From the IMG/VR virus record IMGVR_UViG_3300047557_001693, positions 28,532 to 92,531 of that record: 64,000 nucleotides of DNA, one strand, 5' to 3'. This stretch comes from a virus (taxonomy: Duplodnaviria; Caudoviricetes). The notes below the pieces were generated by a model. The model saw only the letters and a list, made by a program, of their open reading frames with translations, searched no databases and was not told the origin of the DNA. Position numbers and translations under genes: made by a program. This document shows, in pieces, positions 7,332-32,500 of the stretch (positions are counted from its first letter, which is position 1; each line of letters opens with the position of its first letter).

Positions 7332-7357
7332 GTATAAATGGTAATCTGTATATTAAG

Positions 7358-7365: not shown

Positions 7366-7379
7366 TTAAAAGATTTGTT

Positions 7380-8808: not shown

Positions 8809-9052
8809 GAACTCTTTCATTGAATCTTTTAAAGGAAACAATGGTAAGATAGATCATAAAAGATTAACTGTATTTGCATTTGTAATAGGATTCTTTATTA
8901 CAACAGGAATTATACTTTATAAAAAAAATCAAATACCTAATTCAGAATTAGTAGAAATAGTATTAATAACAATGACATCTGTTATACTAGGAGGGATGGG
9001 TTTGACTAAAATAAAAACAAAAATAGAAAAACAGACAGAAAATGAAACTTAG
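8792..9052 (+). CDS. Holin candidate (two TM helices)
   Basis: Two hydrophobic segments and a basic C-terminus; overlaps the M15 endolysin start. The ATG at 8792 is preferred over 8756. Confidence 0.6.
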   Translation: MSKIVKNSFIESFKGNNGKIDHKRLTVFAFVIGFFITTGIILYKKNQIPNSELVEIVLITMTSVILGGMGLTKIKTKIEKQTENET

Positions 9053-11703: not shown

Positions 11704-12642
11704 ATGGCAATCTCTGGAAAACATGTTAGTCTTAAAACCATAGTAGAAAGAGTCTACATGGATTTTGGCTTTAATTACAGCCTATCATTTACTGAAGCAG
11801 CTGAATGGGCAGGTAGTATTTTAGCTTTATTAAAAGTTCCTCTTAGTCTTCAAAACAAGGTTGAGGAAATAACTATTGAAGAATCCAGAGGTGTATTGCC
11901 TTGTGATTTAGAATCTATTGTACAAACTGCTAGAATGGTAGAGGCAGGTAATGATGGTTGTACATCAATGGTAATATCTACATTAGATAGAGGTACAGAA
12001 TATGTTGAAGTATCTGCTATTGATATAGTTAACAGAAAGTTTAAACTATGTGGATGTAATTCATTTACTACTTGTGATGAGTGTACACCAGAAGGATGTG
12101 ATCCAGGTAAACCTATTATTAGATCAGCAGGTGGTTCTTTAGCTAAACCTAATTACAGATTAGAGCCTATGAGATGGGCTACTGATACTTTTCATACTAA
12201 ACAACATTGTTCAGATTATGACTTTTATTGTAAGTCTAATCATACTTATACAGTAAGTGGTAATCATATATTTACCAATTTTACTAATGGTAGAGTGTTA
12301 ATGTCATACTTGGCAATTCCTACTGATGAAGAAGGATTTCCTATGATACCTGCTGATGAGTGGTGGAGACAAGCTGTACAATATGAGATTGCTTACAAGA
12401 TTGCATTTAAACAATTTATACAAGGTAATATTACTGATAAAGTATTCCAAATGATTGAGAGAGAAAGAGATTGGAAAGTTGCTCAAGCAGTTAATAAAAC
12501 TAAGACACCTTCTATTGATGAAATGGAATCATTCAAGAATCAGTGGCTTAAACTTATTCCTCAATATAACAATCATAACAACATGTTTAGAAACATGCAG
12601 TTACCTGAAAAAATGTTTAATCACCCATATAGATATTTTTAA
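11704..12642 (+). CDS. Tail tubular / ring protein (P22 gp4-like, crAss Ttub)
   Basis: 'LPCDL..I', 'IFTNF..G.V.MSYLAIPTDEEGFPMIP' and 'A..PSIDEMES' motifs; position before the Tstab gene. Confidence 0.75.
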   Translation: MAISGKHVSLKTIVERVYMDFGFNYSLSFTEAAEWAGSILALLKVPLSLQNKVEEITIEESRGVLPCDLESIVQTARMVEAGNDGCTSMVISTLDRGTEYVEVSAIDIVNRKFKLCGCNSFTTCDECTPEGCDPGKPIIRSAGGSLAKPNYRLEPMRWATDTFHTKQHCSDYDFYCKSNHTYTVSGNHIFTNFTNGRVLMSYLAIPTDEEGFPMIPADEWWRQAVQYEIAYKIAFKQFIQGNITDKVFQMIERERDWKVAQAVNKTKTPSIDEMESFKNQWLKLIPQYNNHNNMFRNMQLPEKMFNHPYRYF

Positions 12643-12653: not shown

Positions 12654-15600
12654 ATGCCAGTAAGTAAGAACACTTGGATTAAAGGATTAAATTCAGACTT
12701 TTCAAAACTTAAAACTCAACCAGATAGTTACCTTGATGCTAAAAACATCAGGGTAATTACTGATGAGGGTTCATCAACATTTGCTATAGAAAACATTAGA
12801 GGTAATAAGTTTGACTTTAAGTTACCTCCAATTGAAGCTACACATTCATTTACCAAGATTAATAATTACTCAGGTACAGCATTTATATTTATACAAAGAA
12901 CAGTGTTTGATCCTTCAACAGGTTTTTCTTATGTTGAACAAAATTTCTTTACTATAAATAACATACAAGATAAATCATATGAGTTTATAAGTATTGAATT
13001 AAATAATATACTTGCAGATCCTACATTTATATTTTCTGGTAAAGAAAATTTAAAGTTTTATTTTAATTCTAATAATGTAGTACTATATGATTTTAAACCA
13101 CAATCAGATATTATTAATTCTAGTATAACTGTTACTACAAGTAATATAGAATATATACAAAGAACAGATAAAATTACTGGCCATACTATATTAGGATGGG
13201 GTGTATATAATGATAATGTAGTACTTATAAGTTGTAGTGGAGGAGAATCTTCAGTAGATCCTTTAGATACTGAAGGGTTTTTATGGGATGTAACTTATAA
13301 TAATGCTACTGGTAATATAATTACTTCACAACTAGATGGTTTGTTTTTAAAACCATTAACCACATTAAAATATGCAGGTAGATTAAATCTATCTAGAAAC
13401 TATACTATTAGTGAACATTTAAAATGTAGATTTGAAAGTACTGAAATTACAAGAGTAGTATGGACAGATTGGTATAATAACTTAAGAACTTGTAATATAC
13501 AAGACCCTCAAATATGGGCAACACCTGAAGAATTATTTTCTTATATACCATTACACTTACCACAAAAACCTATTATTGAACAAATAATAGATGGTGGTAC
13601 ATTACCTGCAGGTAAATATCAATACTTCTATCAACTATATTCTAATCAAGGTGCCAAATCTACATACTCACCTGTAAGTAGTTTAATATCATTATTTTCA
13701 GGTGATATTTCTAAATATGTAGTTACAGGTAGTAAACCAGGAGTTAATTCACAAAAGTCAGTTAAGATTCAATTAACTAATTTAGATACTAACTATGATA
13801 TTATTAGAATAGGTTATATAGTATATCAGATTGCAGATTTTCCAGAAGCATTCTTTTTTGATGAAAGATTTATTCCTGATGATGGATTTATAAGTATAGT
13901 TCACAATGGTAATGAGAATGACATTCCTGTAGATTCTACAGAGATTGCTAATCTTAATAGACCACCAGAAATATTTAAAACTCTTGATGTTGTAAGAAAT
14001 AGATTGTTTGCAGCTAATGCAATTACTAAATACTTTGATCCTGCATTTGATGCAAGAGCTTATAGATTTAATTCTTCAAGAATATCTAAACTATATAATG
14101 CAAGTGATACTATATCAACTCCATCAGTTTTAATAAATGCTAATAGTAATACAATATCTATTGAAGGTAATATATCAGGTCCTATTGACTATTCATTAAT
14201 ACCTGATAATTTTGATGTTATAAATCCATTTAATGATGAGAATCCTGATATATCTGTAAATCCATTATCTGCTGGTAACTGGGGAGCTAATTCTCAATAC
14301 AAATATAAATCTGATGGTATAACATTAGGTGGTGAAGGTTTAAATATAAGTTATGAATTTATTGTTGATACTAAATTAGCTAAACTTGCAGGTTTACCAA
14401 ATACAACACCTTATATAAGACCTGCTATGGATGGTGTTAATGATTTTACACAACCATTCACAGATACATATACTTATTATTTATCTAACAATACATCATT
14501 AGATTCTATGAAAAATCCTTATGTAGAATCTTTATTTACAGGATATTCTAGAGGTGAAGTGTATAGATTTGGTATTGTATTCTATGATATATATGGTTAT
14601 CCATCTTATGTTAATTGGATAGGTGATATTAAGTTTCCATTTGCATATGACAGTAATGGAGATTTTGGTTTAACTGATAATAATGCAGGTAATAGAGATT
14701 TTGCAATTCTAACAATAGACCCTTCATATTACTCTGATTCACTTAGTCAAACTATATTTAATAATACTTTATTATTTAGTGGTAGCGTGTCTGATATAAC
14801 AGATTATGTTGATACATTTAATACTTCATTTTTACCTAATGCTTTAGATATAACTGCATCAGTTTATAATTCAACTCAAGTTTATTTTTCATTTCCTGCA
14901 GGTTTAGGTGCTGTTGGTTTAATAATTGAAGCTCTTCCTGGTGGTTCTACTGTAAACAGTACTTCAGCAATAGTTTTTCCTGCAGGTTATTCTCAAGTAA
15001 GTGGTGACTTATATACAAAACAAATAGGTATTAAATTTACATTAGACATTAGTAAACCACAGTTTCAAGCTATTAAAGATCAAATATCTGGATGGTCTTA
15101 TGTAAGAGTTAGAAGAGATATTAATAATAGTACTAGATTAGGTACAGGTGTTTTATTACCAACTGTATATGTAGAATTTGCTCCAGATTCAGTAGGTAAA
15201 TATAATATAGTACCTTATGAAAGAAGTGGTGATATACTTCCTACAAATGATAGATGGTTATTTGATTCAACAATACAAGGTAATCCTAATTGGAGAACAA
15301 GAGCTAGAATACAAACTTTTTATTCACCTAATTTTTTAAATAGAAAATCAGGTTTTTTTATATCAAATGATTATATGAGAATGATAGGTAGGACTAATGA
15401 TTTTAGTCAATTATCATATTATTCTCAAAAAATATTTAATTCTGCAACATGGCCTTCAAATACAGTATTATATTATATAGCATCTGCTGATTTTAATTAT
15501 ACTTATGGACTTGAAACAACTAATCCTTTAGTACCAGATAGTACAGGTACAACTTCAGATTATACAGCTACATCTAAAAATAAATTTGAAATAGCAGGTA

Positions 15601-17408
15601 GAACATATGTTAATTATCCAACAGGTGGAGGCTCTTTACCTGTTAATAGTATTACAGGTTTAGATTTTCCATTTATAAATATGGCTTCTTCTAACATGAA
15701 TGAAGCTGAAAATAATGAATATATGGAATGGGGTAATGCTTGTGAATTAATGACATTTATTCAACCTGGACCTGATACTTCTAGAGCATATAATAGTAAT
15801 ACTTTAAAATTACCATTATATTTAACTTCATATGAAAGATATTTAACAAGTCAATATGGTGGATGGTTAAGATCTGATAGATATGGTAATGATTATATAC
15901 TTACTAATCACTTTCAACCTTGGGATAAAAATACATCAGAAGATAATTATCCTAGTGGATTAGTAACTAATGGTGTATTTGGTGGAGATACTTATGTTAA
16001 TTATTTTGATTGGCAAAGAAGTAATATAAATTATAAAGAAGGTAGTGGATGGGATATAAGTCCAAATCCAGGAAGTAATCCTCCATTTGGATTAGGTTTA
16101 TTTTTTCCTTGTGAATCATCATTTAATACAGAATTAAATATAAGTAATCAACATGCATCTAATAGATTAGATACTGTTGAAGGTAGTTATACAATAACTC
16201 CAAGTTATTATGTTTATAATGATGCACTATCTCAACAAAATACAACTAACCTATTTATATCTAAAGGCTTAAATCAAACTAATGTAGTTCGTGAACCACA
16301 TACTATATATGGTACAGAACCTAAGTTAGATAATGAAAGAATAGATAGTTGGAGATCATTCTTAATTAACAATGCACTTACTGTTAATGGTAACTATGGT
16401 GAGATCAATAGACTAGTTCAATTTAAAGATAAACTATACTATTATCAAAATGATGGATTTGGTGTTGCATCTGTTAATGAGAGAGTACTTGCTAATGAAG
16501 GTGATGCTACACAAACTCAATTAGGTACAGGTACTTTACTTCAAAGATTTGACTATATATCTACTGAAACAGGAGCTAAACATTCATTTGCTGTAAAAGC
16601 TACAGGTTCTGCTATATATCACTATGATGCTTTTATTAATAAGTTGTTTAAATATTCAATGTCTAAAGATGGTGCAGGTGTATCACCACTTACTGATGTT
16701 AATGGTTTAAGTGGATTCTTTAGAACTGCATTTGTTAATACTGAATTAAAAAGTGTAGATAAAATATCTTTAACAGGTAATAGTAGAATAGGTATAACAT
16801 CAGGTTATAATTCAGAATACAATACAGTATATTTTACATTCTTTGATGGAACTAAAAATGTTAAAACTACAATAGCATATAATGAACTATTAGATTCTTT
16901 TGAATCTTTCTGTGACTTTTATCCATCATTATATATCAACATGAGAAAAAGATTTTTGTCAATTAATCCATTGGCAACATCTGAAGTATATACACATAAT
17001 CTAGGATTAAGAAATACTTTTTATGGAACTACATTTCCATCATATATTAAATTTAGAGTTAATGAAAACTCAGACTTTGTAAAGACATTTGATAACTTTA
17101 TTATTAATACTGAAGTTATTGATGTAGCAACAGATCAACAATTAAATGAAACTATTACTAGTTATGCTATATCTAATGACTATCAAATAGTTAATGAAAG
17201 AATTGCTAACTTTACTGAGAAGATTAGATCTTGGAGATTACAAATCCCAAGAGATGAAACTAATCCTAACTTAAATATAAAACCAAGAATGTCTGATAAA
17301 TACATTGATGTACTATTTAAACATACTATTAATGGTGGAGATAAAATATTCAGACTACATGATGTAATGACTGAATACTCATTAAGAAGTAAAATACTAC
17401 CTAGATAA
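12654..17408 (+). CDS. Tail stabilisation / muzzle protein (P22 gp10-like, crAss Tstab)
   Basis: 'KGLNSDFS....PDSYLDAKNIR', 'GYSRGEVYRFGIVFYD..G', 'VFGGDTYV', 'IDSWR.F', 'YG.IN.L' and 'GTG..L.R.DYIS...G' motifs. Confidence 0.8.
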   Translation: MPVSKNTWIKGLNSDFSKLKTQPDSYLDAKNIRVITDEGSSTFAIENIRGNKFDFKLPPIEATHSFTKINNYSGTAFIFIQRTVFDPSTGFSYVEQNFFTINNIQDKSYEFISIELNNILADPTFIFSGKENLKFYFNSNNVVLYDFKPQSDIINSSITVTTSNIEYIQRTDKITGHTILGWGVYNDNVVLISCSGGESSVDPLDTEGFLWDVTYNNATGNIITSQLDGLFLKPLTTLKYAGRLNLSRNYTISEHLKCRFESTEITRVVWTDWYNNLRTCNIQDPQIWATPEELFSYIPLHLPQKPIIEQIIDGGTLPAGKYQYFYQLYSNQGAKSTYSPVSSLISLFSGDISKYVVTGSKPGVNSQKSVKIQLTNLDTNYDIIRIGYIVYQIADFPEAFFFDERFIPDDGFISIVHNGNENDIPVDSTEIANLNRPPEIFKTLDVVRNRLFAANAITKYFDPAFDARAYRFNSSRISKLYNASDTISTPSVLINANSNTISIEGNISGPIDYSLIPDNFDVINPFNDENPDISVNPLSAGNWGANSQYKYKSDGITLGGEGLNISYEFIVDTKLAKLAGLPNTTPYIRPAMDGVNDFTQPFTDTYTYYLSNNTSLDSMKNPYVESLFTGYSRGEVYRFGIVFYDIYGYPSYVNWIGDIKFPFAYDSNGDFGLTDNNAGNRDFAILTIDPSYYSDSLSQTIFNNTLLFSGSVSDITDYVDTFNTSFLPNALDITASVYNSTQVYFSFPAGLGAVGLIIEALPGGSTVNSTSAIVFPAGYSQVSGDLYTKQIGIKFTLDISKPQFQAIKDQISGWSYVRVRRDINNSTRLGTGVLLPTVYVEFAPDSVGKYNIVPYERSGDILPTNDRWLFDSTIQGNPNWRTRARIQTFYSPNFLNRKSGFFISNDYMRMIGRTNDFSQLSYYSQKIFNSATWPSNTVLYYIASADFNYTYGLETTNPLVPDSTGTTSDYTATSKNKFEIAGRTYVNYPTGGGSLPVNSITGLDFPFINMASSNMNEAENNEYMEWGNACELMTFIQPGPDTSRAYNSNTLKLPLYLTSYERYLTSQYGGWLRSDRYGNDYILTNHFQPWDKNTSEDNYPSGLVTNGVFGGDTYVNYFDWQRSNINYKEGSGWDISPNPGSNPPFGLGLFFPCESSFNTELNISNQHASNRLDTVEGSYTITPSYYVYNDALSQQNTTNLFISKGLNQTNVVREPHTIYGTEPKLDNERIDSWRSFLINNALTVNGNYGEINRLVQFKDKLYYYQNDGFGVASVNERVLANEGDATQTQLGTGTLLQRFDYISTETGAKHSFAVKATGSAIYHYDAFINKLFKYSMSKDGAGVSPLTDVNGLSGFFRTAFVNTELKSVDKISLTGNSRIGITSGYNSEYNTVYFTFFDGTKNVKTTIAYNELLDSFESFCDFYPSLYINMRKRFLSINPLATSEVYTHNLGLRNTFYGTTFPSYIKFRVNENSDFVKTFDNFIINTEVIDVATDQQLNETITSYAISNDYQIVNERIANFTEKIRSWRLQIPRDETNPNLNIKPRMSDKYIDVLFKHTINGGDKIFRLHDVMTEYSLRSKILPR

Positions 17409-17410: not shown

Positions 17411-20400
17411 ATGGCAGAAAAAAACTCACTCTGGAAAAACATTAGGAAGAAAGCTGAACAAAACAGAAGGACAGGTGCTAAACCTAAAAAGCCTACTGCT
17501 GAAATGCTTAGGCAAGAAAGAAAAATTAAAGCTCAAAAAGCTAATGGTGGTCCTGTAGGTGATGATGATTTAATGCTTTCAAATATTTATAATAAATATC
17601 CTGCTTTTAGAAATATGGGAAATGTTACATTAAAAGCAGATACTGGATTTACAAAAGAAAACACAGGTATTGGAGATATAGAGTTTTTTGATTCAAAAAC
17701 TAAAGAGATTACTTATCCTAATGGTTACAAAGTTGTTAATCCAAGTAATAATGGATCTGGAATTATATATAATCCAAATACAAATACTGAGCAAAATATA
17801 ATGTTAGATATGTTGCATGGGATGCCTTCAGATCCAGTATATAATAAAATAAAATCTGAGCTTGGAGATGCTTATCTTAATTCTGAATTTGCAGAAGATT
17901 TTTATAATGATAGTAAATATTTTAAAAATAAAGTAGGTGAAGAAAAATGGAAAGAATGGTATGGTAATGATAAAGGATTTTTTGATAAAAGTTATTTAGA
18001 TGGTGTTATAAGAAACTTAATGTTTGAAGGAACTGCAGAAGATTTTAAAAAAAACAATTATTGGGAAGATGCTCGTAAAGAATATTTTAAAGATAAGGAT
18101 ATAAAAACTAAATACACTCAGTTAGAAAATTATCTTAAAACAGGACAAGGGTATGTTTTACCAGAAGTAGAAATATTTGGTGATAAAATAAAAGCTAATG
18201 GAGGACCTACCAAATCATTAGTACAACCTCCAGTATTATTAGATGATAATATTATTTATCCTACTGATAATCCTTATATGCCAGGAGTAAATAAAGATAT
18301 TTTAGATTCTGACTATGATAGTTACATGAGATGGAGAGAAGGTTTTATAAATAATCAAGGAATGACTCCTGAAGAATATTATCAAACTTATCCTAGTAGA
18401 CAAGAATATGATAGACAAAATTTTGATCCTGCAAATTTTTATAAAGGTGTTTCATTAGCTCAAGGTGGACCAACAGATGGTAAAGATGATCCTTTTAAAT
18501 CTACTTTAAATCAAGGAGTTACTGTTGCTAAACCTGCTCAAGATTGGGTAAGTTCTTGGGTTCAACATCCTGAATTTGCTAATAGATTAAATGAAAATTT
18601 TCGAGACCATGCTTCAAAATTAAGTAAAAAAATTTATGGAAATAAAGAAGCTAAACAAAGAGCAGCTGAGTCTAATTTAAAAAGTATAAATAAAGCAATA
18701 CCTGGTGTTATAAGTGATATCTACGATACTAAATTTTTATATAACACAAATCCAGAAAATAATTCACAATTACTTGATTTATATAGAGCTAGTTATAATG
18801 ATCCTGAGTATGATAAATTTTTTAAAAAAACCATGAGTAAAAATCCTCAAGGATTTACTGATGAACAAGGTAGAATTGTAATTACAAATGCAGCTAATGA
18901 TCAATATGGTCCAGAATCAGTATCTGTTCATGAGTTAATGCATAAAACAGGTTTATATGATGATGAAACTTTTGATAGAACATTTAAAGGTAAATTTTTA
19001 ACACCTTCTCAAGATAGATTAGATAAAGATTTTAATAGAGGTGAAATGTATCCTTTTTTAATGCAAATGAGATTTGATAATAATTTTCAACCAGGTGAAA
19101 TAATTACTCCAGAAAGATTAAAACAAATTAAAGAATCAGGATATAAAAATCATTTATTTAAATATTATACTGATGATGAAATATCTAAATACTTAAATAC
19201 ACTTGCTAGTAATCAAACACAAACACCTATGCAATATGCTGCTCAAGGTGGATATATGTATGATAGTGGTGGAAATACTAACCCTGTTACACTTTATAAA
19301 AAAGCACAATATGATCCTAATACAGGTAAGATATTAGAATATGCAGGTACTCAAGGTAATGAATACTATGTGACACCTAATACACCTCAAGGTATTGATT
19401 TTGAAAGAAGACTTTCTGAAATTGAAGTTGTTGAAGATACTGGTTTATATAATCCAGATATTGTTGGTCCAACTGCACCAAAGTTTATTCCATCTGAAAC
19501 TGGTTGGATACAAAATCCTAATTGGAGAGGAGGAGATGCTTTAGAATATGTACCAATTGAATCTGCATTATTACCTGCTAGTTTGCCTATTAAAGCAAGT
19601 ACAAATTTAGGTAAAGTAGGTAAGTTTGCAGCAGAAGCTTTAAACCCTTTAGGAGGATTTAGAAATATATCTAAAAAACTAGTTAAATCACCTAATACTT
19701 TTAAATCAGAAATAGATTGGGGTAAATGGAATCCAGATACACCAAACTATCCAGAACTTATTAATGAGTACAATGCAATAGAAGAATCTACTAAAAAAGC
19801 AGGTACCTGGATGAAAAATCCTGATGGTTCTCCTTTTCAAGGAACTCCTGAACAATTTATACAACAGCGAAGTAGTTGGTTTAAAAAATATGTTGAAGAT
19901 GCAGGAGGAAATTATGATGAAGTCATTAATGATCCTTATTTTTATCATGGTTCAAAAACTAAAGGAATAAAAGAGTTTCATACTCCTCAACATGCTGATT
20001 ATACAAAAGCAACAGGAGATACTCCTGAAACTGGTATATTTATAACTAAACGTAAAAGTTTAGCTGATATATATGCTTCAGAAAAATTATTCGATGATTT
20101 AACTCCAAAAATTGGTAAAAAAACAGGAGAAACTTATCAACTTTATGCTCCTGCAAATTATGCTAATCCTGGATTAAAAAATCCAAATAATTCAAATAAA
20201 TTAATAAATACAGGAACTTTAAAATTAAAAGATGTAGATTATTTGGAAAGTTTAGGTTATTCTGGTTTAAAACAATCATCTATGTTTGAAGGAAGTGAAA
20301 GAGCTATATTTAATCCAAATTTACTTAAATCAGCAGTAGGTAATGTAGGATTTTTTGATATAACTAATCCTAATATATATAAAGTAGTAGTTCCGCCAGC

Positions 20401-23400
20401 AGCAATAATAGGAACAGGAGTAGTAGGAGCAGAAGCAATGCAAGGCTCTCAACCTGAACAACAATCAAAAGGTGGTCACATAAATCCATATATGTACTAT
20501 GCAGGTGGACCAATGCAATCAACTAATAACAAATATTCAAAAAATAATATTATGAAATATAAACGAGGAGGTGGTGTTGGAGGTTTCTTCAAAGACTATG
20601 GTAATTATTTAATAAACGCTAACCTTGCTCCTTTTGAAGCTTTAACAGGTAAAGATTTTTTTGACCCTGAATATAATAATAAGATTTTTCAAGTTGGAGA
20701 TAAAATTACTGAAACAGCATCTAACATAGGTATGGGTATGTTAGGTTCTATGTATTTAACACCTCAAGGTTATCAAGCAGCTAGACAAGGTATAAATTCT
20801 ATTTCTGATGAATTTATAGATACTCCACAACAACAGCAGCAACAATATCCTCAACAACAATATTCTCCTAATGTAAATCAAGGATTATCATTTGCAGCTA
20901 CTGGTGGTAATATAAATAATAATTCATTAAATTTGCAAAACTCTATGAGAGGTAAATACAACAGTTATAAAAGAAAGTATTCCAGAGGTGGTACTTTTCA
21001 AAAATATGGAATAAATGAAATTCCTGAATCTGCAGGTTATCATCATCAAAATGCTTATGGTGGAGTACCTATTGGACCTAATGCTATGGCTGAAGGTGGA
21101 GAATTTGTACTTGACAATAATTATGTTGTATCAGATCAAGTAGATGGTATGAACACTCAAACTGATGAGTTTGGTAGAACTATGGCTCAAAATCTTAAAA
21201 GAGATTTGAGTAAATATACATTAAGAGATTTAGATTCTAAAAATAGAGATCAAGAAAGAAGACCTTACAGTGATATTTCTAGCCTTACTATTGAGCAAAT
21301 TAAACAAAATGCTATAATAGAAACTGAAAAGGCAAGAGCTGAAGCACAAGCTAAAGAAGAACAAAGACAAGCTATGGTTAATGGTGCTTTACAATATGCA
21401 GCTGCAGGTGGTAAGTTAAATAAAGATCTTGAAAAGATTTTAAGTAATGATATCCAAAGATATGTTGAAGCAGATAATTATTATGCTTATGGTGGATATC
21501 TTCCTAAAGATAAAGGGTTTAATATGCCTAACTCCTATGCTAAAGGTGGTAGTATTCATATTAAGAAATCTAAAAGAGGTACATTTACTGCTGCAGCTAA
21601 AAAGAGAGGTAAATCTGTACAAGAGTTTGCAAGACAAGTATTAGCTAATAAAGAAAAATATTCTGCAGCTATGGTTAAAAAAGCTAACTTTGCTAGAAAT
21701 GCTTCTAAATGGAAACATGCAGATGGTGGATATACTTTTGGAAATGAAACTCCTGAAATAATTTATCCACAACAACCAATGTTATACAATATAGCTCCAA
21801 CAGATGTTGAACAACCATATGTTATAAATAATAATCAACTTCTCAATAGTATGCCAAAAAGAAATCCTGTAATTTCTGATGAAGGTTTTATATATGATGA
21901 TAGTGAAACAAATGTTAAACCAACTACATCATTAGATTATAATATTGATAAAAATATAATTGATCCTAATAATAAAAATTTAAATGCAAATATAAATTTC
22001 TTAAGAGAAAGTTCAAAAGGTAAAATAGGAGTTACTGGTAGTTATGAAAATTCTACAACTTTAACACCACAAGAGTTAGAAGAAATTAGAACACAACAAG
22101 CAATAAATCAACAAAAATTAAATTTAGGTTTAACTGGTAGTAGAACATTTAATACAAAAAATGATGGTAAAATAATAGTTGGAGGAAGTGTAAATTCTAC
22201 TATGCAACCAGGTTCTGCACCAGTTTATAATTATCAAGGTACTGTTGGTTATAGTACACCTAAAGGAAATACATTTGATGCTAATATTTCAAGAGATGCA
22301 GCTACTGGAGCTACTACTGGAAAAGTTAGTGGTAAAATTGTATTTGGAAAAGCAAAAGGTGGTCCAATGGTATCTAATGTTGCACAACCATTTCAAGTAG
22401 CTGCACAAAACAGAGGTGGAATGATGATGAATTATGCTATGGGTGGTAATATGTATGCTATGGGTGGTCCTGGTGATGAATTAGATCCTGAACAACTTAA
22501 AGCACAAGGATTTGTAGAATATGAAGAATATTTTTACAATCCTACTACTGGTCAATATATTGATAAAGTTTCTATAGACACTAGACGTGAAAAACAACTT
22601 CAGGAACGTATAGATAGATTTATGGAACAAGATGTTAAATTTGATAATTCAGCTATAAAACCTATGGCTAGTTTATTAAGTAATACAGGAATTGAAAATT
22701 CACCTATTAATACAGGTATAATGACATATGATGCAACTCCTCAAGCTACAAATCCACTTGGAGGAATTAAAAAACCTGGAATGGAAAATATGATTGGTTC
22801 TAATACTTTTGAACCAGGAACTACTTATAGTATAGCTAATACAAATCCTTATGGAAGTTATTATGATTTAAGATATTCAGATCCAAATTCTTTTGACTTT
22901 TCTTTAGATAGATTTCCTATTTTAGATAGAGAGGGTAACATTCAAACTACTCCTGAAGATTTTGCAAGATTACAAAGTGTAGCAGGTACAGATATTGAAC
23001 AATCTAGATTAAATAGATTTACTGAACCTTACAATCAAGTAATGTCTACTAGAGATAAAGTTAGAAGAGCTTATCAAAATAAATCTCCTTACTTAGATAA
23101 TATGGTAGATGAGCCTGCTAAATCTAATAAGTCAAATAATTATTTTAGAAATCTAAATACACCTAATGTAATAGATGCTCAAGGTAATACAAGTAGTATT
23201 CTTAGTAGAAGAAATAAAAATCAATCTACACCAGTAGAACCTATTGAAAGAATGCAATCTAGAAATCTTCAGCAATTACCTACAGATAATACACCATTAT
23301 CAATAACAAATAACTATCCAGAGTCTAGTTATAGACCAGCTACATTAACAGAAGAAGAACAAAACATGTTAGATAGAATGTCTAATACAGCAGGCTTTAT

Positions 23401-24601
23401 ACCATCTGATGTAATGTCTGGAAAATTAGGAACTTCTACTGCACCTTTCCCTTATGAAGAAGGACCTGTTAATATTTCTATTCCTAGAGAAGCAAATCCT
23501 GGAGAAAACATTAGATTTATACTACCAGAAGGATCTGATATAATTGAAGATTTACCAGGAACTGTTTCAACTCAAACAAAAGTTTCTGATGCAGCTATAG
23601 GTTTAGATAATAATTTATCAGATCTTCCATTAAATTTTACAGAAAAATCTGCTAAAAAATATGGTTTAAATCCTAATGTAAATAATATTAATATTGTACC
23701 TAAACAACCTAATGATGGTCTTGGAATACCAGATTATATATCAATGGTAGCACAAGCTGCAGGCCCATTAATTCAATCATACTATGGATTAAAAGGAGGT
23801 GATGATGTTAACTATGAAAGAATTAAAGCTGATAAAATAGATCCTTATAAAGCAATACAAATAATAAGAGATTATTTTACAACAGGTGATAATACTACAA
23901 GTTATAACTTAAGACAAAATGCTCCTACATCAGGAAGTTTTATGTCTAATATGAGATCAAAATTACAAAATCTTAAAGATAAAGCAGCTCAAATTGCAAA
24001 TATGCAGTATCAAGCTGATGTAGCTAATACTCAAACGCAAAATCAAGTTAATGCACAAAATGCTCAAATAGCAATGCAGGAGCAAATTGATAGATTACAA
24101 GAGAAAGATGCTGCTAGAACTAATGTAACAGAAGGTTTTAGTGGATTAGGTTCATCTGCTGCTAATATGATTAGAGATTATAGAATTAATCAATTAAATA
24201 AAACTATTGCTGAAAATATTGGTACTAGTAATACTCAATTAGTTAGAGGTGCAGATGGAAAATATAGACTTGTAATGAAACCTAATAGTGGAAATGATTG
24301 GACACCAACACCTTACAATGATCCTTATAAACAAAATGCACCTGCAGCAAATACAGGTGCTAATGCACCATCTGCTAATGTTACTCCTGCTGCTGCACCA
24401 GCTGCTAATACAACACCAAAATCAGTTAATTTTGACGATAATATTAAAGATAAAACAGCAGGTGATGCATTTAGAAAATGGGTTAATGAAAAACATCCTG
24501 ACTATGCTAAAGAAAAAGATTTATGGGTAAGTGGAGAATATAATAATAGTTATATTAAGAAAGCTTGGGATGAATATGGTAAAGAATATTTAGGACAATA
24601 A
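17411..24601 (+). CDS. Virion cargo (ejection) protein 1, multi-module polyprotein-like
   Basis: First gene after the muzzle; ~18 x-[AS]-x-GG-like motifs separate modules, including HELMH zincin, YHGS ART-like and a basic domain; N/Q-rich helical C-terminal core. Confidence 0.7.
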   Translation: MAEKNSLWKNIRKKAEQNRRTGAKPKKPTAEMLRQERKIKAQKANGGPVGDDDLMLSNIYNKYPAFRNMGNVTLKADTGFTKENTGIGDIEFFDSKTKEITYPNGYKVVNPSNNGSGIIYNPNTNTEQNIMLDMLHGMPSDPVYNKIKSELGDAYLNSEFAEDFYNDSKYFKNKVGEEKWKEWYGNDKGFFDKSYLDGVIRNLMFEGTAEDFKKNNYWEDARKEYFKDKDIKTKYTQLENYLKTGQGYVLPEVEIFGDKIKANGGPTKSLVQPPVLLDDNIIYPTDNPYMPGVNKDILDSDYDSYMRWREGFINNQGMTPEEYYQTYPSRQEYDRQNFDPANFYKGVSLAQGGPTDGKDDPFKSTLNQGVTVAKPAQDWVSSWVQHPEFANRLNENFRDHASKLSKKIYGNKEAKQRAAESNLKSINKAIPGVISDIYDTKFLYNTNPENNSQLLDLYRASYNDPEYDKFFKKTMSKNPQGFTDEQGRIVITNAANDQYGPESVSVHELMHKTGLYDDETFDRTFKGKFLTPSQDRLDKDFNRGEMYPFLMQMRFDNNFQPGEIITPERLKQIKESGYKNHLFKYYTDDEISKYLNTLASNQTQTPMQYAAQGGYMYDSGGNTNPVTLYKKAQYDPNTGKILEYAGTQGNEYYVTPNTPQGIDFERRLSEIEVVEDTGLYNPDIVGPTAPKFIPSETGWIQNPNWRGGDALEYVPIESALLPASLPIKASTNLGKVGKFAAEALNPLGGFRNISKKLVKSPNTFKSEIDWGKWNPDTPNYPELINEYNAIEESTKKAGTWMKNPDGSPFQGTPEQFIQQRSSWFKKYVEDAGGNYDEVINDPYFYHGSKTKGIKEFHTPQHADYTKATGDTPETGIFITKRKSLADIYASEKLFDDLTPKIGKKTGETYQLYAPANYANPGLKNPNNSNKLINTGTLKLKDVDYLESLGYSGLKQSSMFEGSERAIFNPNLLKSAVGNVGFFDITNPNIYKVVVPPAAIIGTGVVGAEAMQGSQPEQQSKGGHINPYMYYAGGPMQSTNNKYSKNNIMKYKRGGGVGGFFKDYGNYLINANLAPFEALTGKDFFDPEYNNKIFQVGDKITETASNIGMGMLGSMYLTPQGYQAARQGINSISDEFIDTPQQQQQQYPQQQYSPNVNQGLSFAATGGNINNNSLNLQNSMRGKYNSYKRKYSRGGTFQKYGINEIPESAGYHHQNAYGGVPIGPNAMAEGGEFVLDNNYVVSDQVDGMNTQTDEFGRTMAQNLKRDLSKYTLRDLDSKNRDQERRPYSDISSLTIEQIKQNAIIETEKARAEAQAKEEQRQAMVNGALQYAAAGGKLNKDLEKILSNDIQRYVEADNYYAYGGYLPKDKGFNMPNSYAKGGSIHIKKSKRGTFTAAAKKRGKSVQEFARQVLANKEKYSAAMVKKANFARNASKWKHADGGYTFGNETPEIIYPQQPMLYNIAPTDVEQPYVINNNQLLNSMPKRNPVISDEGFIYDDSETNVKPTTSLDYNIDKNIIDPNNKNLNANINFLRESSKGKIGVTGSYENSTTLTPQELEEIRTQQAINQQKLNLGLTGSRTFNTKNDGKIIVGGSVNSTMQPGSAPVYNYQGTVGYSTPKGNTFDANISRDAATGATTGKVSGKIVFGKAKGGPMVSNVAQPFQVAAQNRGGMMMNYAMGGNMYAMGGPGDELDPEQLKAQGFVEYEEYFYNPTTGQYIDKVSIDTRREKQLQERIDRFMEQDVKFDNSAIKPMASLLSNTGIENSPINTGIMTYDATPQATNPLGGIKKPGMENMIGSNTFEPGTTYSIANTNPYGSYYDLRYSDPNSFDFSLDRFPILDREGNIQTTPEDFARLQSVAGTDIEQSRLNRFTEPYNQVMSTRDKVRRAYQNKSPYLDNMVDEPAKSNKSNNYFRNLNTPNVIDAQGNTSSILSRRNKNQSTPVEPIERMQSRNLQQLPTDNTPLSITNNYPESSYRPATLTEEEQNMLDRMSNTAGFIPSDVMSGKLGTSTAPFPYEEGPVNISIPREANPGENIRFILPEGSDIIEDLPGTVSTQTKVSDAAIGLDNNLSDLPLNFTEKSAKKYGLNPNVNNINIVPKQPNDGLGIPDYISMVAQAAGPLIQSYYGLKGGDDVNYERIKADKIDPYKAIQIIRDYFTTGDNTTSYNLRQNAPTSGSFMSNMRSKLQNLKDKAAQIANMQYQADVANTQTQNQVNAQNAQIAMQEQIDRLQEKDAARTNVTEGFSGLGSSAANMIRDYRINQLNKTIAENIGTSNTQLVRGADGKYRLVMKPNSGNDWTPTPYNDPYKQNAPAANTGANAPSANVTPAAAPAANTTPKSVNFDDNIKDKTAGDAFRKWVNEKHPDYAKEKDLWVSGEYNNSYIKKAWDEYGKEYLGQ

Positions 24602-26516: not shown

Positions 26517-29500
26517 ATGCCAGAAGAAAAATTAAACTCCAGTAAGTTAATAGGTATGATGAAAAATTCAGCACCATCTAATCCTGTGATGATTGCTGAT
26601 GAATCAAAATATGATTTAGGTTCTGGATTCACTATTGATCCAAATCCACAATATGCAACTGAAAATATAGAAGATCTTTATGAATCAAGAGCACAAATGC
26701 AGGGTGCTGCTGATAAATGGGGTAATGGTATAGTTAAATTAATAGGTAAAACAGGTACAGCAGTAGTTGGTGGTGTTGGTATGATTGGTTCAGTAGCATA
26801 TAATGTTGCAGGTCAATTAGAAGATTTATGGACAGGTGTAGATGATACATCATTTAAACAAATATATGATAATGATTTTTACAATGCTTTAAATAAAGCT
26901 AATGAAGCAATGGATGAAGATTTTAAACACTATGTTACTAGAGAAGCTCAGGAATATAGTGCTTTTGAAAAAATGGGTACTGCTAATTTTTGGTCTAATG
27001 ACTTCTTACAAGGTGCTTCATTTGTTGTAGGTGCAGTATTAACTGAAGGTGCTTTTGCAGCAATGGCTAGTGTTGGTAGATTAAATAATCTTACAAAAGC
27101 AATTAGAGCTGTAGATAAAGCTATAGGTGCTACAGATAATGTAGTTGGTAGTGTAGGTAGTATGATGAGTAAATCAGCAATTAGACAAACTGGTTATGAA
27201 GCAGCTACATTAGGTAGACAAATGATTACTAGTGCAGGTTATGAATCTGCAGTAGAAGCAAATTCATTTGTTAAAGATGCTAAAGAAAAATGGTTATTAG
27301 ACTTTACTGAAAAAAATAGAAGAGAACCTACTGCTGAAGAAACAGCTGCTGCAATGGATGAAATATATAAAGTAGGTAATAGTGTATTTGGTATTAACTT
27401 AATTGTTACAGGACTTACACAAGCTAAAAGTATACCTGGAATGTTTTCACCTAAATTAGGTAAGATGTTAGGTAGTACTTATAATCCTGAAAAAAAGTTT
27501 TTAAAAGAGATAGTTGAAACTGCAACTTTAACTGATAAGCAATTAATTAGAGCAGCTAAAAACCTTGGAAAAACTGTAGATGAAGTTAAGGCTATGCCTA
27601 ATATTAGTAAATATGCAATATTAACTGGAGGTGAAAAATTTGCAAGAGGTGCTGTTAGAGGTTTAGAAGGTGCTGTGTTTGAAGGTGGTCAAGAAGGTTT
27701 ACAAAAAGCAATTAGTTATGCAGGAGAAGATTATCTTCAAGATAGATTTGATCCTTCAGAATCTGAAGATATTATTAAATCAGGAATTGCAGGTTTGACA
27801 AAAGCTTTTGGTAATAATGCGGAAAGTTGGACTGAAATATTTATTGGTGCTATATTAGGTTCTGCAGGTGGACCTGGACCAAGTGGTTCTAGATTAAAAG
27901 GATGGCAAGGAGGAATTATTGAAGCTTTTAGAGATCCTGCTAATTCTCCTGAATTAAATAGTTTTATTGATTTAGCTAATAATTATGCAGCAAATAGTGA
28001 AGGTATAATGAATAATTATATTAAGCACTTTAATCTAATTACTAATTCTCAATTAAAGAAAGATAATTTTGCTGAACAAAATGATGTTTATAATTATAAA
28101 TCAGAAGAAGCTAAACAGATGTTTGATTATTTAAACATGATGTCTAAGATGGACAGGCTTTCAGAAGTTGAAGAAAAATATCTTGCAGAATTAAATAAAC
28201 TTACTAAAGAACAATTTCAAGAAAGATATGGTTATGAAAATTTAACTGAAAAAGATTTCTTAAAAAGAAAAACAGATATAAATCTTAATATAAAAGAACA
28301 AATTGAATCTGTTAAAAATTCTAGAGATAAAGCTTCTGGTATTTATAGAGGTGGTGATGTTGATGTATTAGATCAAATTGCATATACTGTATATGCTAAT
28401 AAAAATTTAAGTGATAGAAAAAAACAAATGCTATCAGAAATATCTAATACTTTAAATAAAGCTGTATCTCAAAGAACAGCTGAAATTTCAAAGATGGCTA
28501 ATTTTAAAGAAATTAGAGATCTTCAATATTCAATTAATCAGTTAAAAAACTCAAGAGTTGAACCACAAAGTGAACAAGCTCAAGTTGATCAGATAGTAAA
28601 GTTAGAAGCTGAATTAGATAAGCTTCTTGAAAAAACTTATAATAAAGAATTAAAGAATACTGCTCCTGATGCAAAACTTGCTAAAGATTTTCAAAAGTTT
28701 AAAGCAGATGTATTGTTTCACATTGAAGATTTTAATTCTATTTCAGAAGATATAGAAAATGTAGATCCTATAGATAAAGCTGATATACAAAAGAAGTTAG
28801 ATGATATTGGTAAAATTCTTAATCAAGAGCAAGAATATGCAAAACTTTTTAATAGATTACTAACAAGAGAAGGTATTCAAAGCTTAGAAGAATCTGTTAA
28901 TAAATTAAAAGATGATATTGTAAAAGAACATATTGAATTACAAGATTATTTAATGTTTGAAAAGTTTAAAAAGGAAGATCCTAATAAAAAACTTTTTGAA
29001 GCACAGGAACAAATTCTTAAACAGAAAAGAAAAAAAGTAAACTTTGATGTTGCTGTAAGTGCACAAGTCCAAAATACTATTGGACAGATTAATGACATGA
29101 AAACATTAATCAATGGATTATCTCTTGAAGATAATATGAAAGAAAGCTTAATTGTATCTTTTGAAAAGTTACATGAAATTCTTGCAAAATATGAAACTAT
29201 TCCTACAGAAGAAGGTAAAAAGACTTTTTTACAAAATGAAATAAAACCAATGTTTGAAGATTTTAAGAACAGACTTAAGTTTCTTGAAATCTATAGCCCA
29301 GAATCTTATAATAAAGTAATAGGTTCTGAAATATACACTAAATTAAATAACCTTATTAAAAGTTTAGGTGCAACTACTCCAGCAAATTCATCTGCAACAT
29401 TATCTCCTGTTAACTCAGATCCTTCTAGATTACAAACTATGGAGTGGTTACCTAGTCCTGAAGTAGATGCTATTAAAAATACAGTTACTGATATAGATGA

Positions 29501-32500
29501 AAAACTAAACTTTAAAATTGTAAGAGAAGATTTAGGTGAAGGACATCCTGACTTTGCACTACCTAATAATCAGATTGGTGAAAACATGGTAGGTACTGGT
29601 GTAATGGTAGCTAAAGGTATTCCTGAATTAAAAGAAATGATGGGTGATACTGCACCTGGAGTTAAGTATGCAATTGAAGTTTACTATGAAAACACACTTG
29701 TAGGATATTTAAATACACCTAACAAGTATAGGTTTGGTCAAAACATGGATGAGTTTAATGGTAGCCCAGAGCACCTTGGAATGCTTAATCCTAAATATGT
29801 AATGACAGATGAAGCTACTGGTGAAATAAAAGCATCAACTGATGGTAAAAGATTTATAAGCATATATGAAAATTCAGTAGAAGCATTCAATAGATTGTTA
29901 ACTCAAGCTAAGGATAATGATAAAACAGAGTTTACTAATGAAGAGTTTACATCTATCTATGATATAAACTTTGATTACTCAGGCATGAGATCAGGAAATA
30001 TATCAGTAGATGATTTAACTAAAGTTGCTAATGGTAATACTGTTTCTAACCTAGCAGATATATTTGAAGACATTCCTGATGGGTTACCTGAAAGAGGAAT
30101 GATTATATTCAACAAGTATCTTGATAAATACTATGTGTATGATCCTGCTACAAAGACTGGAATTAATATTGATGAAAAATACAATCACTATTTAAATAAC
30201 CATTTTAGTCATGCATTAAATATTATAAGAGATAATAACTTTGCTGTATCAGCTTTATATAAAATAAGAGGTAAAGAGTTATTTACTGTATTTAAAGATG
30301 AAGCTTTAGATGTTGATGATGTTAATTTTAATGAAGAGTTAAATAATGACCTTGATAAAATAATTGAATATGTTAAAGATTTAAAAGACAAATATCAATT
30401 ATCATCTTTATTTACTAAAGATGGTAATGAAACTACTTTAGCAAAATATTTAACTGAAGTTGAATCTAAATATAGATTTACCTCTTTAGGTAGAAACTAT
30501 AAATTAAACTTTATTGTTAAAAAAACTAATGATGATCCTGTAATTGAATTACAATTATCTGTTAGTAGAGAAGGTTCAGGATTTACAAATGTTACTTTAG
30601 CAGTATATAATTTAAATAGAAATCTAATACCTTTTTCAAAAGGTGCTAAATTAAGTAGTAAATCACAAGGGTTTTTATTTAACAATAGTGCTTTATTATT
30701 TACTAAAGATGGTTTAAAATATGATGGTAAAATACTTAAAACAACCAAAGATTTTGTAAATTTTTTAAATGCTAGAATAAAAGATAAATTAGAATTTAGG
30801 AAAAAAGGTACTAGTGAATATGATGAAAATGATGTTTACAATTTATCATATGTAGATCCTAATACAGGTAATCAAGAAGTAGCTGCAATTCAAAATGTTA
30901 AAAGAAACTTATCTTCTGAAGATATAGTATCTAATCTTGATAAATTTAATACTGTAAAATTACCTGAACTAAAAGTAACCTTTACTAAGAAGAGTGGTGT
31001 TATTGATAGTGAGATAGAAACTGCAATTGAGAAAGCTTTAGCTACTACTGATAAAACTCAAGATAAATATTTAACTAGTACACTTGATTTATTAAACTAT
31101 ACTTTTAATAATCAGAATGAAGAAACTAAGAATGCATATAGAATTAAATATAACAATGCTGCAAATCATCTTAATAAACTTATTAATGATAGATTAAAGT
31201 TTAGACAGCAAGGGCAACAAACTTCTGTTTCTGAAATAGTTATTGGTAATTTTAAAACTAAATTTGATTCTACAACAAATTTGTGGAAAATTTATGATTT
31301 ACAAGATAATAGTTTAGGTTTAAGTTTTAAAACAAAAGAAGAAGCTGTTAAAGAATTAGAATTAACTGAAATTCAACAAAAGGTACAAGATATATTACTT
31401 ACTGAAGATAATTATTTAAATTGGAGTAATATAAGAGATAAATCTGATTATGATAAATTTGAAGATGCTGTTAACTTTTTAATGTCTAATATAGATCAAG
31501 CAGCTTCTAAAAAAATATTAACTAAACAAGATATTGAAGATATTTGGAGTAATCACAAAGTAGGAAGAAATACTAAAACAAAAGATGCTGTAATTTCTTT
31601 ATTACTCAAAATGCAAGCATTATCTACTAAACAACCAACACAACAAGCACCTCCTCAACCTCCAACTCAACCACCTGCAGATGATTCATCTAGTGGACCA
31701 TTAGGTACATTCTATGCATCAGATGTATTATCTACTGAAAATGAAGAAATAGCTGCTAAGAGAGAAAGATTACTTCAAATACTTCCTGATTGGATTAGTA
31801 TTAAAGATATAGATACTGTATTAGAAGGTTTATCTAAAAGTGGATTTACCTATGGTATGTTTAGAAACTCAGCAATCTATTTAGCTAAGAATGCTCCTAA
31901 AGGTGTTGAGTACCATGAAGCATTCCATGCTGTGTTTAGAGTATTGTTAACTGATAGTCAAATTAGTAAAATACTTTCTGAAGCAAGAGTTAAGTATGGT
32001 GTACCTACTGCAGAGCAACTTAAAGATTTAAAATCTAAATCACCTAAGTATAGTAAGTTAACTAAAGAACAGTTAACTAATCTTTACTATGAAGAAAGAA
32101 TGGCTGATGAGTTTATGGATTACATGCAAAATGGTAAACCAATGAAATCAGATTCTTTCATTAAAAAGATGTTTGATAAGATTATCAATTTTATCAGAAA
32201 CATGTTTGGTTTAGGTAATGTTAAACAACCACTTAGCAGTGAGATAGAACAATTGTTTGAAGACATTGCTACAGGTAAATTTAAATCTGCACCTAAAGTC
32301 AAGCAGTCTATTATACCATTAGATGTTGATGCATATAAACTATTGAAAAATAATGACAATAGTTTTATGGATGGTAAGACCACTAACAATATTATTAATA
32401 GAGTTTTCTTTGAAGTACTAGAGTTTAAAAATAACAATGGGTACTTTACTCAAGATATTATCTATCAATTTATAGATAGTGTTAAAAATGAAATATACTC

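Follow-up and report, generated by a model that had tools for sequence, protein, structure and literature searches.

The cargo open reading frame and its modules

Here, we analyzed a stretch of 64,000 nucleotides (the window, that is, the whole of that stretch) spanning positions 28,532 to 92,531 of the IMG/VR record IMGVR_UViG_3300047557_001693, a 92.5-kb virus contig with a CheckV completeness of 64%. In this AT-rich window (guanine plus cytosine content of 26-36%), an open reading frame (ORF) of 2396 amino acids (aa) sits at positions 17411-24601 within a block of same-strand genes, and we file it as a homolog of the crassvirus cargo protein C1 (gp45 in Bacteroides phage PhicrAss001) from a divergent crAss-like phage. 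An earlier note on this DNA had described the protein as one packaged chain punctuated by about 18 double-glycine motifs, which were proposed to be protease-processing sites or capsid-loading tags. The motifs follow the consensus (M)-Y-A-x-G-G-[P/Y]-hydrophobic, often in tandem heptads, and coincide with the borders of exchanged modules; with moderate confidence, we read them as brackets or hinges of the cassettes that stay uncut and also serve as sockets for exchange. The modules of the ORF and the genes that precede it are as follows, with cassette limits given in residues and nucleotides.

17411 to 24601, plus strand: whole ORF, 2396 aa, open throughout; probable expanded C1-type cargo (ejection) protein with exchangeable cassettes
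17411 to 17551, plus strand: basic leader (aa 1-47) at the N-terminus, conserved and closed by KANGG; many BLAST high-scoring segment pairs (HSPs) end at residue 47
17552 to 18205, plus strand: variable cassette (aa 48-265), closed by KANGG (261-265); covered by about 4 relatives, no Pfam match better than E 0.1
18206 to 18469, plus strand: variable cassette (aa 266-353), closed by LAQGG (349-353); from the BLAST map
18470 to 19252, plus strand: predicted gluzincin-type metallopeptidase cassette (aa 354-614), closed by Y-A-A-Q-G-G (609-614); HELMH at 507-511, E545
19253 to 19273, plus strand: one heptad junction unit, YMYDSGG (aa 615-621); from motif and spacing analysis
19274 to 19681, plus strand: variable cassette (aa 622-757); from the BLAST map and Pfam segment scan
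19682 to 20476, plus strand: ART-PolyVal-like ADP-ribosyltransferase (ART) cassette (aa 758-1022), closed by QSKGG (1018-1022); PF18760
20477 to 20584, plus strand: junction cluster (aa 1023-1058), HINPYMYYAGGPM...KYKRGGGVGG; from GG spacing analysis
20984 to 21370, plus strand: predicted CARG1 portal-binding domain (aa 1192-1320) with three internal GGs (1193, 1217, 1229); PF25725 and BLASTP to gp45
21536 to 21730, plus strand: basic three-helix module (aa 1376-1440) with YAKGG and HADGG as its brackets; PHROG 20603, AlphaFold2 (AF2) block predicted local distance difference test (pLDDT) score 84-91
22349 to 22471, plus strand: near-invariant junction element (aa 1647-1687), KAKGGPMVSNVAQPFQVAAQNRGGMMMNYAMGGNMYAMGGP; from alignment A2
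23066 to 24232, plus strand: conserved C-terminal helical module (aa 1886-2274) without AxGG; about 31 relatives cover aa 2100-2274
10141 to 10893, plus strand: tail ring protein 2 (PF25702, E 2.9e-37)
11704 to 12642, plus strand: ring protein 1 (PF24228, E 1.2e-47)
12654 to 17408, plus strand: muzzle protein gene, directly 5' of the cargo ORF (PF25731, E 1.8e-145)

The assignment to C1 draws on the CARG1 domain, on BLASTP similarity to gp45 and on synteny. In the Pfam scan of the whole ORF, crAss_CARG1 (PF25725) was the only family to appear (aa 1192-1320, E 3.1e-5), with a score of 24.5 bits that lies under the 27-bit cut-off, and the PHROGs scan likewise returned family 20603 alone (aa 1387-1428). 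By BLASTP, aa 1177-1317 align with residues 424-551 of gp45 (29% identity, E 2e-6) and aa 1379-1441 with residues 373-429 (37% identity, E 9e-4), while a relative of the ORF, P0007, reaches 28.6 bits for CARG1. Taken together, these matches point to a CARG1 domain in the ORF, its own Pfam score being sub-threshold when considered alone. As for synteny, the stop of the muzzle gene and the start of the cargo ORF are separated by 2 nt, ORFs of 627, 4413, and 1895 aa lie on the 3' side, and the gene order around the cargo ORF is the gp43-gp50 order of PhicrAss001, in which the gene 3' of the muzzle gene encodes cargo protein 1 (C1, gp45). By homology, the protein described here would be carried in the virion and would bind the portal wing and the tail barrel. 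No further relative was retrieved for the whole protein by phmmer against PDB sequences (0 at E <= 1), by Foldseek against PDB with both AF2 half-models (none at E <= 0.001), or by the NCBIfam scan (nothing). AF2 was run on the two halves of the protein with 41-row alignments (A1 and A2) and gave poor models (mean pLDDT of 47.4 and 49.3), in which the ART region (837-1150) did not fold, and which served for the pattern of order and disorder only.

Although most cassettes bear no Pfam name, two of them carry putative enzymes. All 20 aligned copies of the gluzincin cassette have H507, E508, H511, E545, A610, G613, and G614 unchanged, and Y609 is kept in 18 of the 20. This cassette is homologous to g070, a virion protein of Cellulophaga phage phi14:2. 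Given that the MPTase-PolyVal family (PF18818) gave no match at E <= 1 in a six-frame search of the record, nor any in the segment scan of the ORF, the zincin appears to be of another, unnamed type. The match of the second putative enzyme to PF18760 (aa 844-982, E 3.7e-6) scores 28.2 bits, under the 31.2-bit cut-off, and the cassette is 44-45% identical to those of P0052 and P0054, both of which score above it. The chain is thus predicted to hold at least two unrelated effector or enzymatic domains, namely the gluzincin signature and an ART-PolyVal, as expected of a polyvalent protein.

The remaining modules are recognizable through their conservation. The leader starts with MAEKNSLW or MSEKNSLW in 42 of 48 family members, 38 of the 48 additionally have a GG within the first 60 residues, and AF2 predicts two helices in it (block pLDDT 73-78). 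The arrangement GGxINPYMYYxGGPMxYxxGG, as found at aa 1023-1058, recurs in most relatives, and 12 residues of the junction element at 1647-1687 are invariant in the 41-row alignment A2 (G1650, G1651, P1652, N1656, Q1659, F1661, Q1666, N1667, G1670, M1671, G1678, and G1679). Long helices are predicted by AF2 for the C-terminal module (block pLDDT 72-82).

Double-glycine motifs coincide with the borders of exchanged modules

All 18 xxGG cores listed in the earlier note lie where it had placed them, and the motifs proved to be real and undercounted. The ORF holds 28 overlapping GG dipeptides in 27 runs, nine of which (707, 748, 832, 1057, 1217, 1229, 1591, 1784, and 2129) had been left out of that list, while the 28th dipeptide, at 1054, is part of the already listed GGG run at 1053. 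Composition-preserving shuffles predict 15.6 +/- 3.7 GG dipeptides, and 28 or more were obtained in 3 of 5000 of them. The excess is far stronger for A-x-G-G, with 14 occurrences in the ORF against 1.05 expected; the 18 sites first listed comprise 12 AxGG and six looser forms (YDSGG, QSKGG, YYAGG, YKRGG, YSRGG, and QNRGG), and the GGs at 1193, 1217, and 1229 lie inside the CARG1 domain rather than in a linker. The remaining 41 ORFs of the window contain five AxGG altogether, and four neighboring ORFs (of 1584, 627, 4413, and 1895 aa, three of them giant) contain none, the 4413-aa ORF having 11 GG against 11.5 expected. On the other hand, each of the 47 close relatives described below harbors 6-23 AxGG against 0.7-2.1 expected.

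These relatives form a mosaic family. When 5.8 billion proteins were searched through a word index, 60 proteins of 1350-3014 aa came up, whose best local alignments cover just 5-32% of the query, and 47 of them (P0004-P0049 and P0055) form one family of 48 proteins together with the ORF. The BLAST map separates a fixed scaffold, made of aa 1-47 (about 43 relatives), 1105-1445 with CARG1 and the basic module (about 45-50), 1648-1687 (about 29), and 2100-2274 (about 31), from rarer cassettes at aa 48-265 (about 4 relatives), 266-353 (about 8), 354-616 (about 16), 611-757 (about 17), 758-1026 (about 9-12), 1446-1623 (about 3), and 1688-1885 (about 8). Other relatives carry ADPrib_exo_Tox or DUF3597, and the Pfam scan of three large relatives (P0004, P0007, and P0039) showed nothing besides CARG1.

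As the earlier note had claimed, the motifs fall at module borders, and these borders in relatives coincide with them. When the 48 proteins were compared all against all by BLAST, a GG was present within 3 residues of 28% of the 6397 HSP ends and of 9% of random positions, the median distance being 10 residues against 36; because HSP ends are not independent and BLAST extends into a shared motif from either side, this statistic measures a coincidence and does not tell to which side the motif belongs. When the dipeptides with at least 450 occurrences are compared (59 of them), GG ranks first (ratio of 2.96), followed by GP, YA, GY, and QG, all of which are parts of the motif, whereas AA reaches 0.83. 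Individual comparisons agree with this picture: P0006 is 89% identical over aa 1-353, stops at LAQGG, and aligns again from residue 1105 only; P0007 is 98% identical over aa 262-616, with edges at KANGG and YAAQGG, and differs in the rest of its 3014 aa; and in ten relatives residue 47 is where the HSPs of the leader stop. The ART cassette also occurs outside the C1 family, in proteins without AxGG enrichment (P0050-P0061), and in six of them (P0050, P0052, P0053, P0054, P0056, and P0058) the shared stretch stops on a GG of their own that is aligned to QSKGG 1018-1022. These ART-sharing proteins have a related junction, [Y/F/M]-[Q/A/K]-x-G-G, together with the unit K-x-GG-W-L-D-K-Y described below. 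The claim of one packaged cargo-type chain built of unrelated, exchangeable modules is therefore supported, the comparison of borders in relatives being the check that the earlier note had itself put forward.

What is conserved at these borders is a peptide with a fixed order of residues. The 50 related proteins tallied provide 1124 unique GG contexts, in which A occupies 46% of positions at -2 and only 10% at -3, Y occupies 31% at -3 and only 7% at -2, and M reaches 17% at -4; after the GG, P (17%) and Y (13%) lead at +1, and M, I, V, and L sum to 53% at +2. This fixed order speaks for a motif rather than an effect of composition. G is enriched again at -7/-6 and +7/+8, and a spacing of exactly 7 from GG to GG occurs 133 times in the 48 proteins (54 times for the runner-up spacing), the repeat unit being a heptad such as GG-N-M-Y-A-M-GG. 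Since the codons of the motif vary (GCT or GCA for Ala, GGT or GGA for Gly) without any long conserved DNA word, conservation acts on the peptide and not on the DNA. In this regard, the idea that the motifs have no function at the protein level, and are a by-product of G/Y/M-rich low-complexity linkers, DNA recombination signals, or internal starts at Met, appears very improbable. The linkers are rich in M, Y, Q, and G, Met is enriched at -4 and +2, and cassette exchange is clear at the junctions, which are the features that this idea would account for; yet the position-specific conservation largely refutes it, the varying codons and the persistence of the motif in proteins below 50% identity also count against it, and internal starts found no evidence, the single case traced being a contig-end artifact.

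The basic three-helix module offers the broadest view of a bracket. We ran an exhaustive phmmer search with aa 1151-1450 (CARG1 and basic module) against 1.84 billion cluster representatives (50% identity), which matched 2318 proteins at E <= 0.001, of which 1295 also reached E <= 1e-10, the basic module alone being present in most matches listed. The best 150 of the 2318 matches include 133 further diverse proteins, in which AxGG occurs 593 times against 98 expected and 118 of which have the basic module; these module-bearing proteins share less than 50% identity and range from 93 to 2639 aa. In the 113 evaluable proteins, a GG lies at most a few residues upstream of the module in 110, closely downstream in 110, and on both flanks in 109, so the bracket travels with the module, as [Y/F]-A-x-G-G-x-I-H-I-K upstream and K-W-K-H-A-x-G-G downstream. 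In the ESM Atlas, the module occurs in virus clusters only, auto-named "transcriptional regulator," and no Pfam family covers it.

Several further occurrences of such units were observed. One protein of 229 aa (P0109) contains the basic three-helix module twice, with an upstream bracket K-S-G or K-A-G that is a natural variant of x-G-G. A unit K-x-GG-W-L-D-K-Y is present in non-C1 polyvalent proteins (P0059, P0062, P0070, P0078, and P0080), where it is internal, at the extreme N-terminus, or at the extreme C-terminus, and GGWL also opens the CARG1 of gp45 and of the C1 of phage cr108_1. In a relative encoded on a metagenome contig (L006, positions 1-2550), a small helical insert of about 45 aa (QDQMMQLIQAY...AEEL) separates two GG units of the NRGGMMM junction element, which is conserved apart from this, and thus shows the insertion of a cassette within a junction cluster; the next ORF in line on that contig (2573-4591) is a homolog of the 627-aa ORF of the window. 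Finally, short proteins that start with MAVGGP, MRYDGGGP, or MMYATGG were considered as natural split genes at junctions and were discarded, P0068, the one traced to its DNA, being the contig-end truncation of a continuous ORF; a scan of viral contigs for it gave no match.

Processing sites, docking peptides, or uncut hinges

Viral polyprotein sites show the pattern seen here, with a short and strictly conserved motif at either end of every cassette. A protease of the phage or of the host, perhaps the gluzincin of the chain itself, might cut at or beside (M)YAxGG and free the cassettes (zincin, ADP-ribosyltransferase, a basic peptide of 60 residues, and others) as separate proteins in the head or after injection, a scenario that we hold to be possible but doubtful. 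It would have precedents in the GG-specific maturation proteases of adenovirus and African swine fever virus and in the self-cleavage of lactococcal tail lysins, and it would fit with a leader that ends in GG at residues 46-47 in 40 of the 41 leader-bearing relatives tallied (GG or GS counted). It would also fit with the constancy of the HExxH and E signature of the gluzincin, which is present in 25 of the 48 relatives; however, the other 23, like the C1 proteins of PhicrAss001, cr108_1, and cr128_1, lack HExxH and have as many motifs or more, the density of AxGG per 1000 aa being 5.6 with the zincin and 7.5 without it in the 48 relatives. The residue that most often follows GG is proline (17.6% of 1307 runs in the 48 proteins, ahead of Y at 13.3% and K at 10.4%; 6 of the 27 runs in the ORF), whereas GG-specific proteases generally accept a small residue at that place and disfavor proline. 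Cleavage of tandem heptads would yield scraps of 7 residues, and the remaining ORFs at cargo positions are devoid of the motif. We also count against cleavage that the search of the 92.5-kb record, with its completeness of 64%, brought up no peptidase of the C48, C39, C5, S78, or M23 families, a host enzyme being conceivable; in the record search, PF02902, PF03412, PF00770, PF01551, and PF04586 (prohead protease) had no match at E <= 1.

Two comparisons bear on the same question from other systems. In phi14:2, the N- and C-terminal parts correspond to separate ORFs (g070 and g069), which implies that parts of C1 can work unlinked. Moreover, the accessible part of the work of Iyer et al. (2017, PMC5512222) predicts that polyvalent proteins are processed by zincins and cites phage P1 DdrB as processed. 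Conversely, A-F-G-G is continuous with the domain in the solved part of gp45, which argues against a cut after that GG, and the available text of the structural study (Bayfield et al. 2023, PMC10172136) regards gp45 as a single chain in which 179 residues could bridge 420 Å. Within that available text, mass spectrometry of PhicrAss001 is an in-gel digest without size information, the strings "cleav" and "proteol" have 0 occurrences each, and neither a GG motif nor processing is mentioned; in the portion at hand of an earlier study (Shkoporov et al. 2018, PMC6235969), virion bands range from 15 to >300 kDa, including bands of 85 and 100 kDa, and the text leaves the gp45 band unassigned; product sizes or termini are given in neither of these two texts.

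On balance, the part of the earlier note that saw protease sites releasing separate proteins finds no support in the analysis: no GG-type protease was found in the record (64% complete), motif density does not track the zincin, proline often follows GG, and one motif is continuous with its domain in gp45. The broader proposal, that crassvirus C1 and the related polyvalent proteins of other Bacteroidota phages with [Y/F/M]-[A/Q/K]-x-G-G are true polyproteins, seems slightly more doubtful still. The cuts would be made inside the head or once the chain is injected, by a GG-directed protease that would be either the gluzincin of the chain or an enzyme of the host. If the proposal were true, the effector cocktail released would comprise an ADP-ribosyltransferase, a metallopeptidase, and a basic peptide of 60 residues that binds DNA, the system would be a tailed-phage counterpart of the GG-X core maturation of adenoviruses and asfarviruses, and the motif would be a universal plug-in socket for effectors.

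Recognition without cleavage can be envisaged as well. The motifs could be short linear peptides that dock the chain, at many points, to the portal, the inside of the capsid, the lumen of the tail, or a protein of the host (envelope or chaperone), and thereby serve to load it into the head or to pull it into the cell, which we consider unlikely. Conservation is strict on both sides of the GG, motifs occur in N-terminal, internal, and C-terminal positions, and repeated copies would add avidity. In gp45 (842 aa, 8 AxGG), as far as the accessible structural text describes it (PMC10172136), the motifs flank both ordered parts, with SAYGG (206-210) and FAEGG (260-264) around the tail-barrel-bound helix 214-245, and with A-F-G-G (425-428, in the unit 424-428) at the start of the portal-bound segment 425-552 and FAYGG (559-563) downstream of it; A-F-G-G-W-L is itself ordered within this segment, but apart from A425-G428 the motifs lie outside the resolved density described there. 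The other ORFs at cargo positions are without the motif, which makes it unfit as a general loading signal; the capsid-loading tags of the earlier note are left neither shown nor excluded.

Uncut brackets or hinges remain the reading that we favor. The C1 of the solved relative sits inside the head, attached to the portal wing, and its proposed route of ejection leads through the tail with the N-terminus in front. The C1 studied here would have grown to 2396 aa through the uptake of exchangeable cassettes into a fixed scaffold, made of the basic N-terminal leader, CARG1, the basic three-helix module, the junction element of about 40 residues, and the C-terminal helical module. Each cassette comes with its (M)-Y-A-x-G-G-[P/Y]-hydrophobic bracket, often doubled or tripled in 7-residue units, and these brackets would be protein-level junction elements that stay uncut in the virion, as glycine hinges flanked by short aromatic or hydrophobic strands. 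Such hinges may allow each cassette to fold, unfold, and refold independently while the chain is threaded through the tail, and the same brackets may offer a standard in-frame socket for the exchange of cassettes between phages.

Two further observations were counted in favor of brackets that remain uncut: some motifs lie within folded parts (the strands of CARG1 and a helical hairpin at 1333, with a block pLDDT of 70), and related motifs are placed at the outermost termini of proteins (MKDGGWLDKYQ... at the start, ...KKGGWLDKYN and ...KGGYLTIKKKK just before the stop), where cutting would release nothing sizeable. Moreover, 16 of the 18 motifs of the earlier note fall in 10-residue AF2 blocks with a mean pLDDT below 50 (read by eye) against a baseline of 61% of residues below 50, which is weak evidence that the junctions tend to low AF2 confidence and are predicted to be flexible.

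Several points weigh against uncut hinges. A plain hinge needs no invariant Y-A-x-G-G, and conservation of this kind usually reflects partner recognition, at a protease or binding site. The hinge action of the motif has been seen in no structure, and the poor quality of the AF2 models makes predicted disorder a weak argument. The sole solved example, A425-G428 of gp45, is an atypical junction, fused to CARG1 and silent on the other sites, and whether gp45 is full length is left unstated in the accessible parts of the PhicrAss001 papers (PMC6235969 and PMC10172136). Lastly, the gluzincin of the chain is conserved and apparently active, which is what the model of processing by Iyer et al. would lead one to expect.

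Genomic surroundings and comparison with known systems

Besides the ring and muzzle genes, several other genes of the window were noted. In the tail gene block, 5' of the ring genes, lie a phage lysozyme ORF (4958-5416, plus strand, PF00959, E 1.6e-40) and a Peptidase_M15 cell-wall peptidase ORF (9042-9554, plus strand, PF08291, E 2.7e-14). A 183-aa ORF (7940-8491, plus strand) has a CHU_C sorting domain of type IX secretion (PF13585, E 1.3e-16), and the ORF that precedes it (7338-7940) has weak PKD-like matches. The CHU_C domain suggests a Bacteroidota host with a type IX secretion system, and its ORF may perhaps encode a virion surface protein that mimics host cargo. Outside the window, we take the large ORFs of the record, by size and order alone, to be those of the terminase, the portal, an acidic coiled-coil protein, and the capsid protein.

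Downstream of the cargo ORF, the 4413-aa ORF (26517-39758, plus strand) has no Pfam match at E <= 0.01. Its residues 1162-4161 have weak tblastn matches (20-28% identity, E 4e-11 to 2e-6) to genes of crAss-like phages annotated as "putative RNA polymerase," "DNA helicase," and "exonuclease V," and the ORF may represent a fusion of the proteins of the virion RNA polymerase. In the replication block, a 410-aa ORF (55232-56464, minus strand) resembles Peptidase_M42 (E 4.4e-4), at 19.8 bits under the 23.2-bit cut-off. A ubiquitin-like conjugation, which would involve an E1-like ThiF beside a metalloprotease as annotated in PhicrAss001, was considered and set aside, as no ThiF was found in the record and the M42-like ORF shows no relationship to gp77 ("metalloprotease") of that phage.

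No phages of the human gut are more abundant than crassviruses, and the onset of infection by them is largely unknown. The ORF and its 47 relatives suggest that C1, next to its structural part, can also bear enzymatic cassettes (ADP-ribosyltransferase-like and metallopeptidase), and in this respect C1 behaves like the polyvalent proteins of other mobile elements. The bracket motif may further provide a simple sequence rule to place cassette borders in thousands of phage proteins that would otherwise be unannotatable, and the question of whether it is cut bears on another one, raised by the PhicrAss001 structure, namely whether one C1 chain spans the portal and the tail. A literature search, outside of which lay about 1.7 million PubMed Central articles and the subscription-only papers, found none that names the motif or ties C1 to polyvalent proteins, ADP-ribosyltransferases, or proteolysis.

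Short conserved peptides are known at the exchange points of variable modules in polymorphic toxins (e.g., the VENN motif of CdiA) and, as glycine-rich motifs, between the hypervariable segments of the gp38 adhesins of T-even phages. The brackets described here are similar in kind; unlike these one or few junctions in a single domain, they number at least a dozen and separate whole enzymatic cassettes in a protein that would be injected. As to GG-directed maturation, the adenovirus protease cuts at (M/I/L)XGG followed by X, the African swine fever virus protease pS273R cuts between GG and X, C39 peptidases act on double-glycine leaders, and the tail lysins of lactococcal phages cleave themselves at a glycine-rich site. 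With these systems, the ORF shares a Gly-Gly with a conserved residue 2-3 positions upstream, at the borders of functional units; in contrast to them, the upstream residues are Y-A-x instead of hydrophobic-x, P is frequent after GG, and C5, C48, C39, and M23 peptidases were not found in the record.

Closer to the ORF is gp45 of PhicrAss001, whose published view, in the available text, is that of a channel-forming ejection protein, the domain 425-552 of which was resolved where it binds the wing of the portal (Bayfield et al. 2023, PMC10172136). Both genes follow the ring and muzzle genes, and both proteins share CARG1, the basic module, and AxGG motifs; they differ in length (2396 against 842 aa), in the extra cassettes of the ORF (gluzincin, ART-PolyVal-like, and several unnamed), and in the order of modules, the basic module preceding CARG1 in gp45 and following it in the ORF with its brackets kept.

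With polyvalent proteins, described in the accessible text as single injected chains that bear many effector domains and may be processed by a zincin (Iyer et al. 2017, PMC5512222), the ORF would have in common unrelated enzymatic domains, here an ART-PolyVal type and a zincin, on one chain that travels with DNA. The modular-chain part of the earlier note is supported and matches this published concept, here on a different carrier, the C1 scaffold of a crassvirus, and with MPTase-PolyVal undetected. The terms "crAss," "linker," and "glycine" have 0 occurrences in that same accessible text, and the junction motif is not described in it.

Finally, the C1 region of the marine crassvirus phi14:2 (L005, 11518-14676) is split, unlike the ORF, into two shorter ORFs (593 and 420 aa, with 2 AxGG each) separated by a 114-nt gap, both of which, g070 and g069, are virion proteins by tandem mass spectrometry according to the record annotation. 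Like the ORF, g070 combines CARG1-like sequence with zincin cassettes, two in this case (HEFTH and HEFIH), which are separated by QYVGGG and AAMGGP, and g069, judged by eye from its translation, resembles the C-terminal helical module as a separate ORF.

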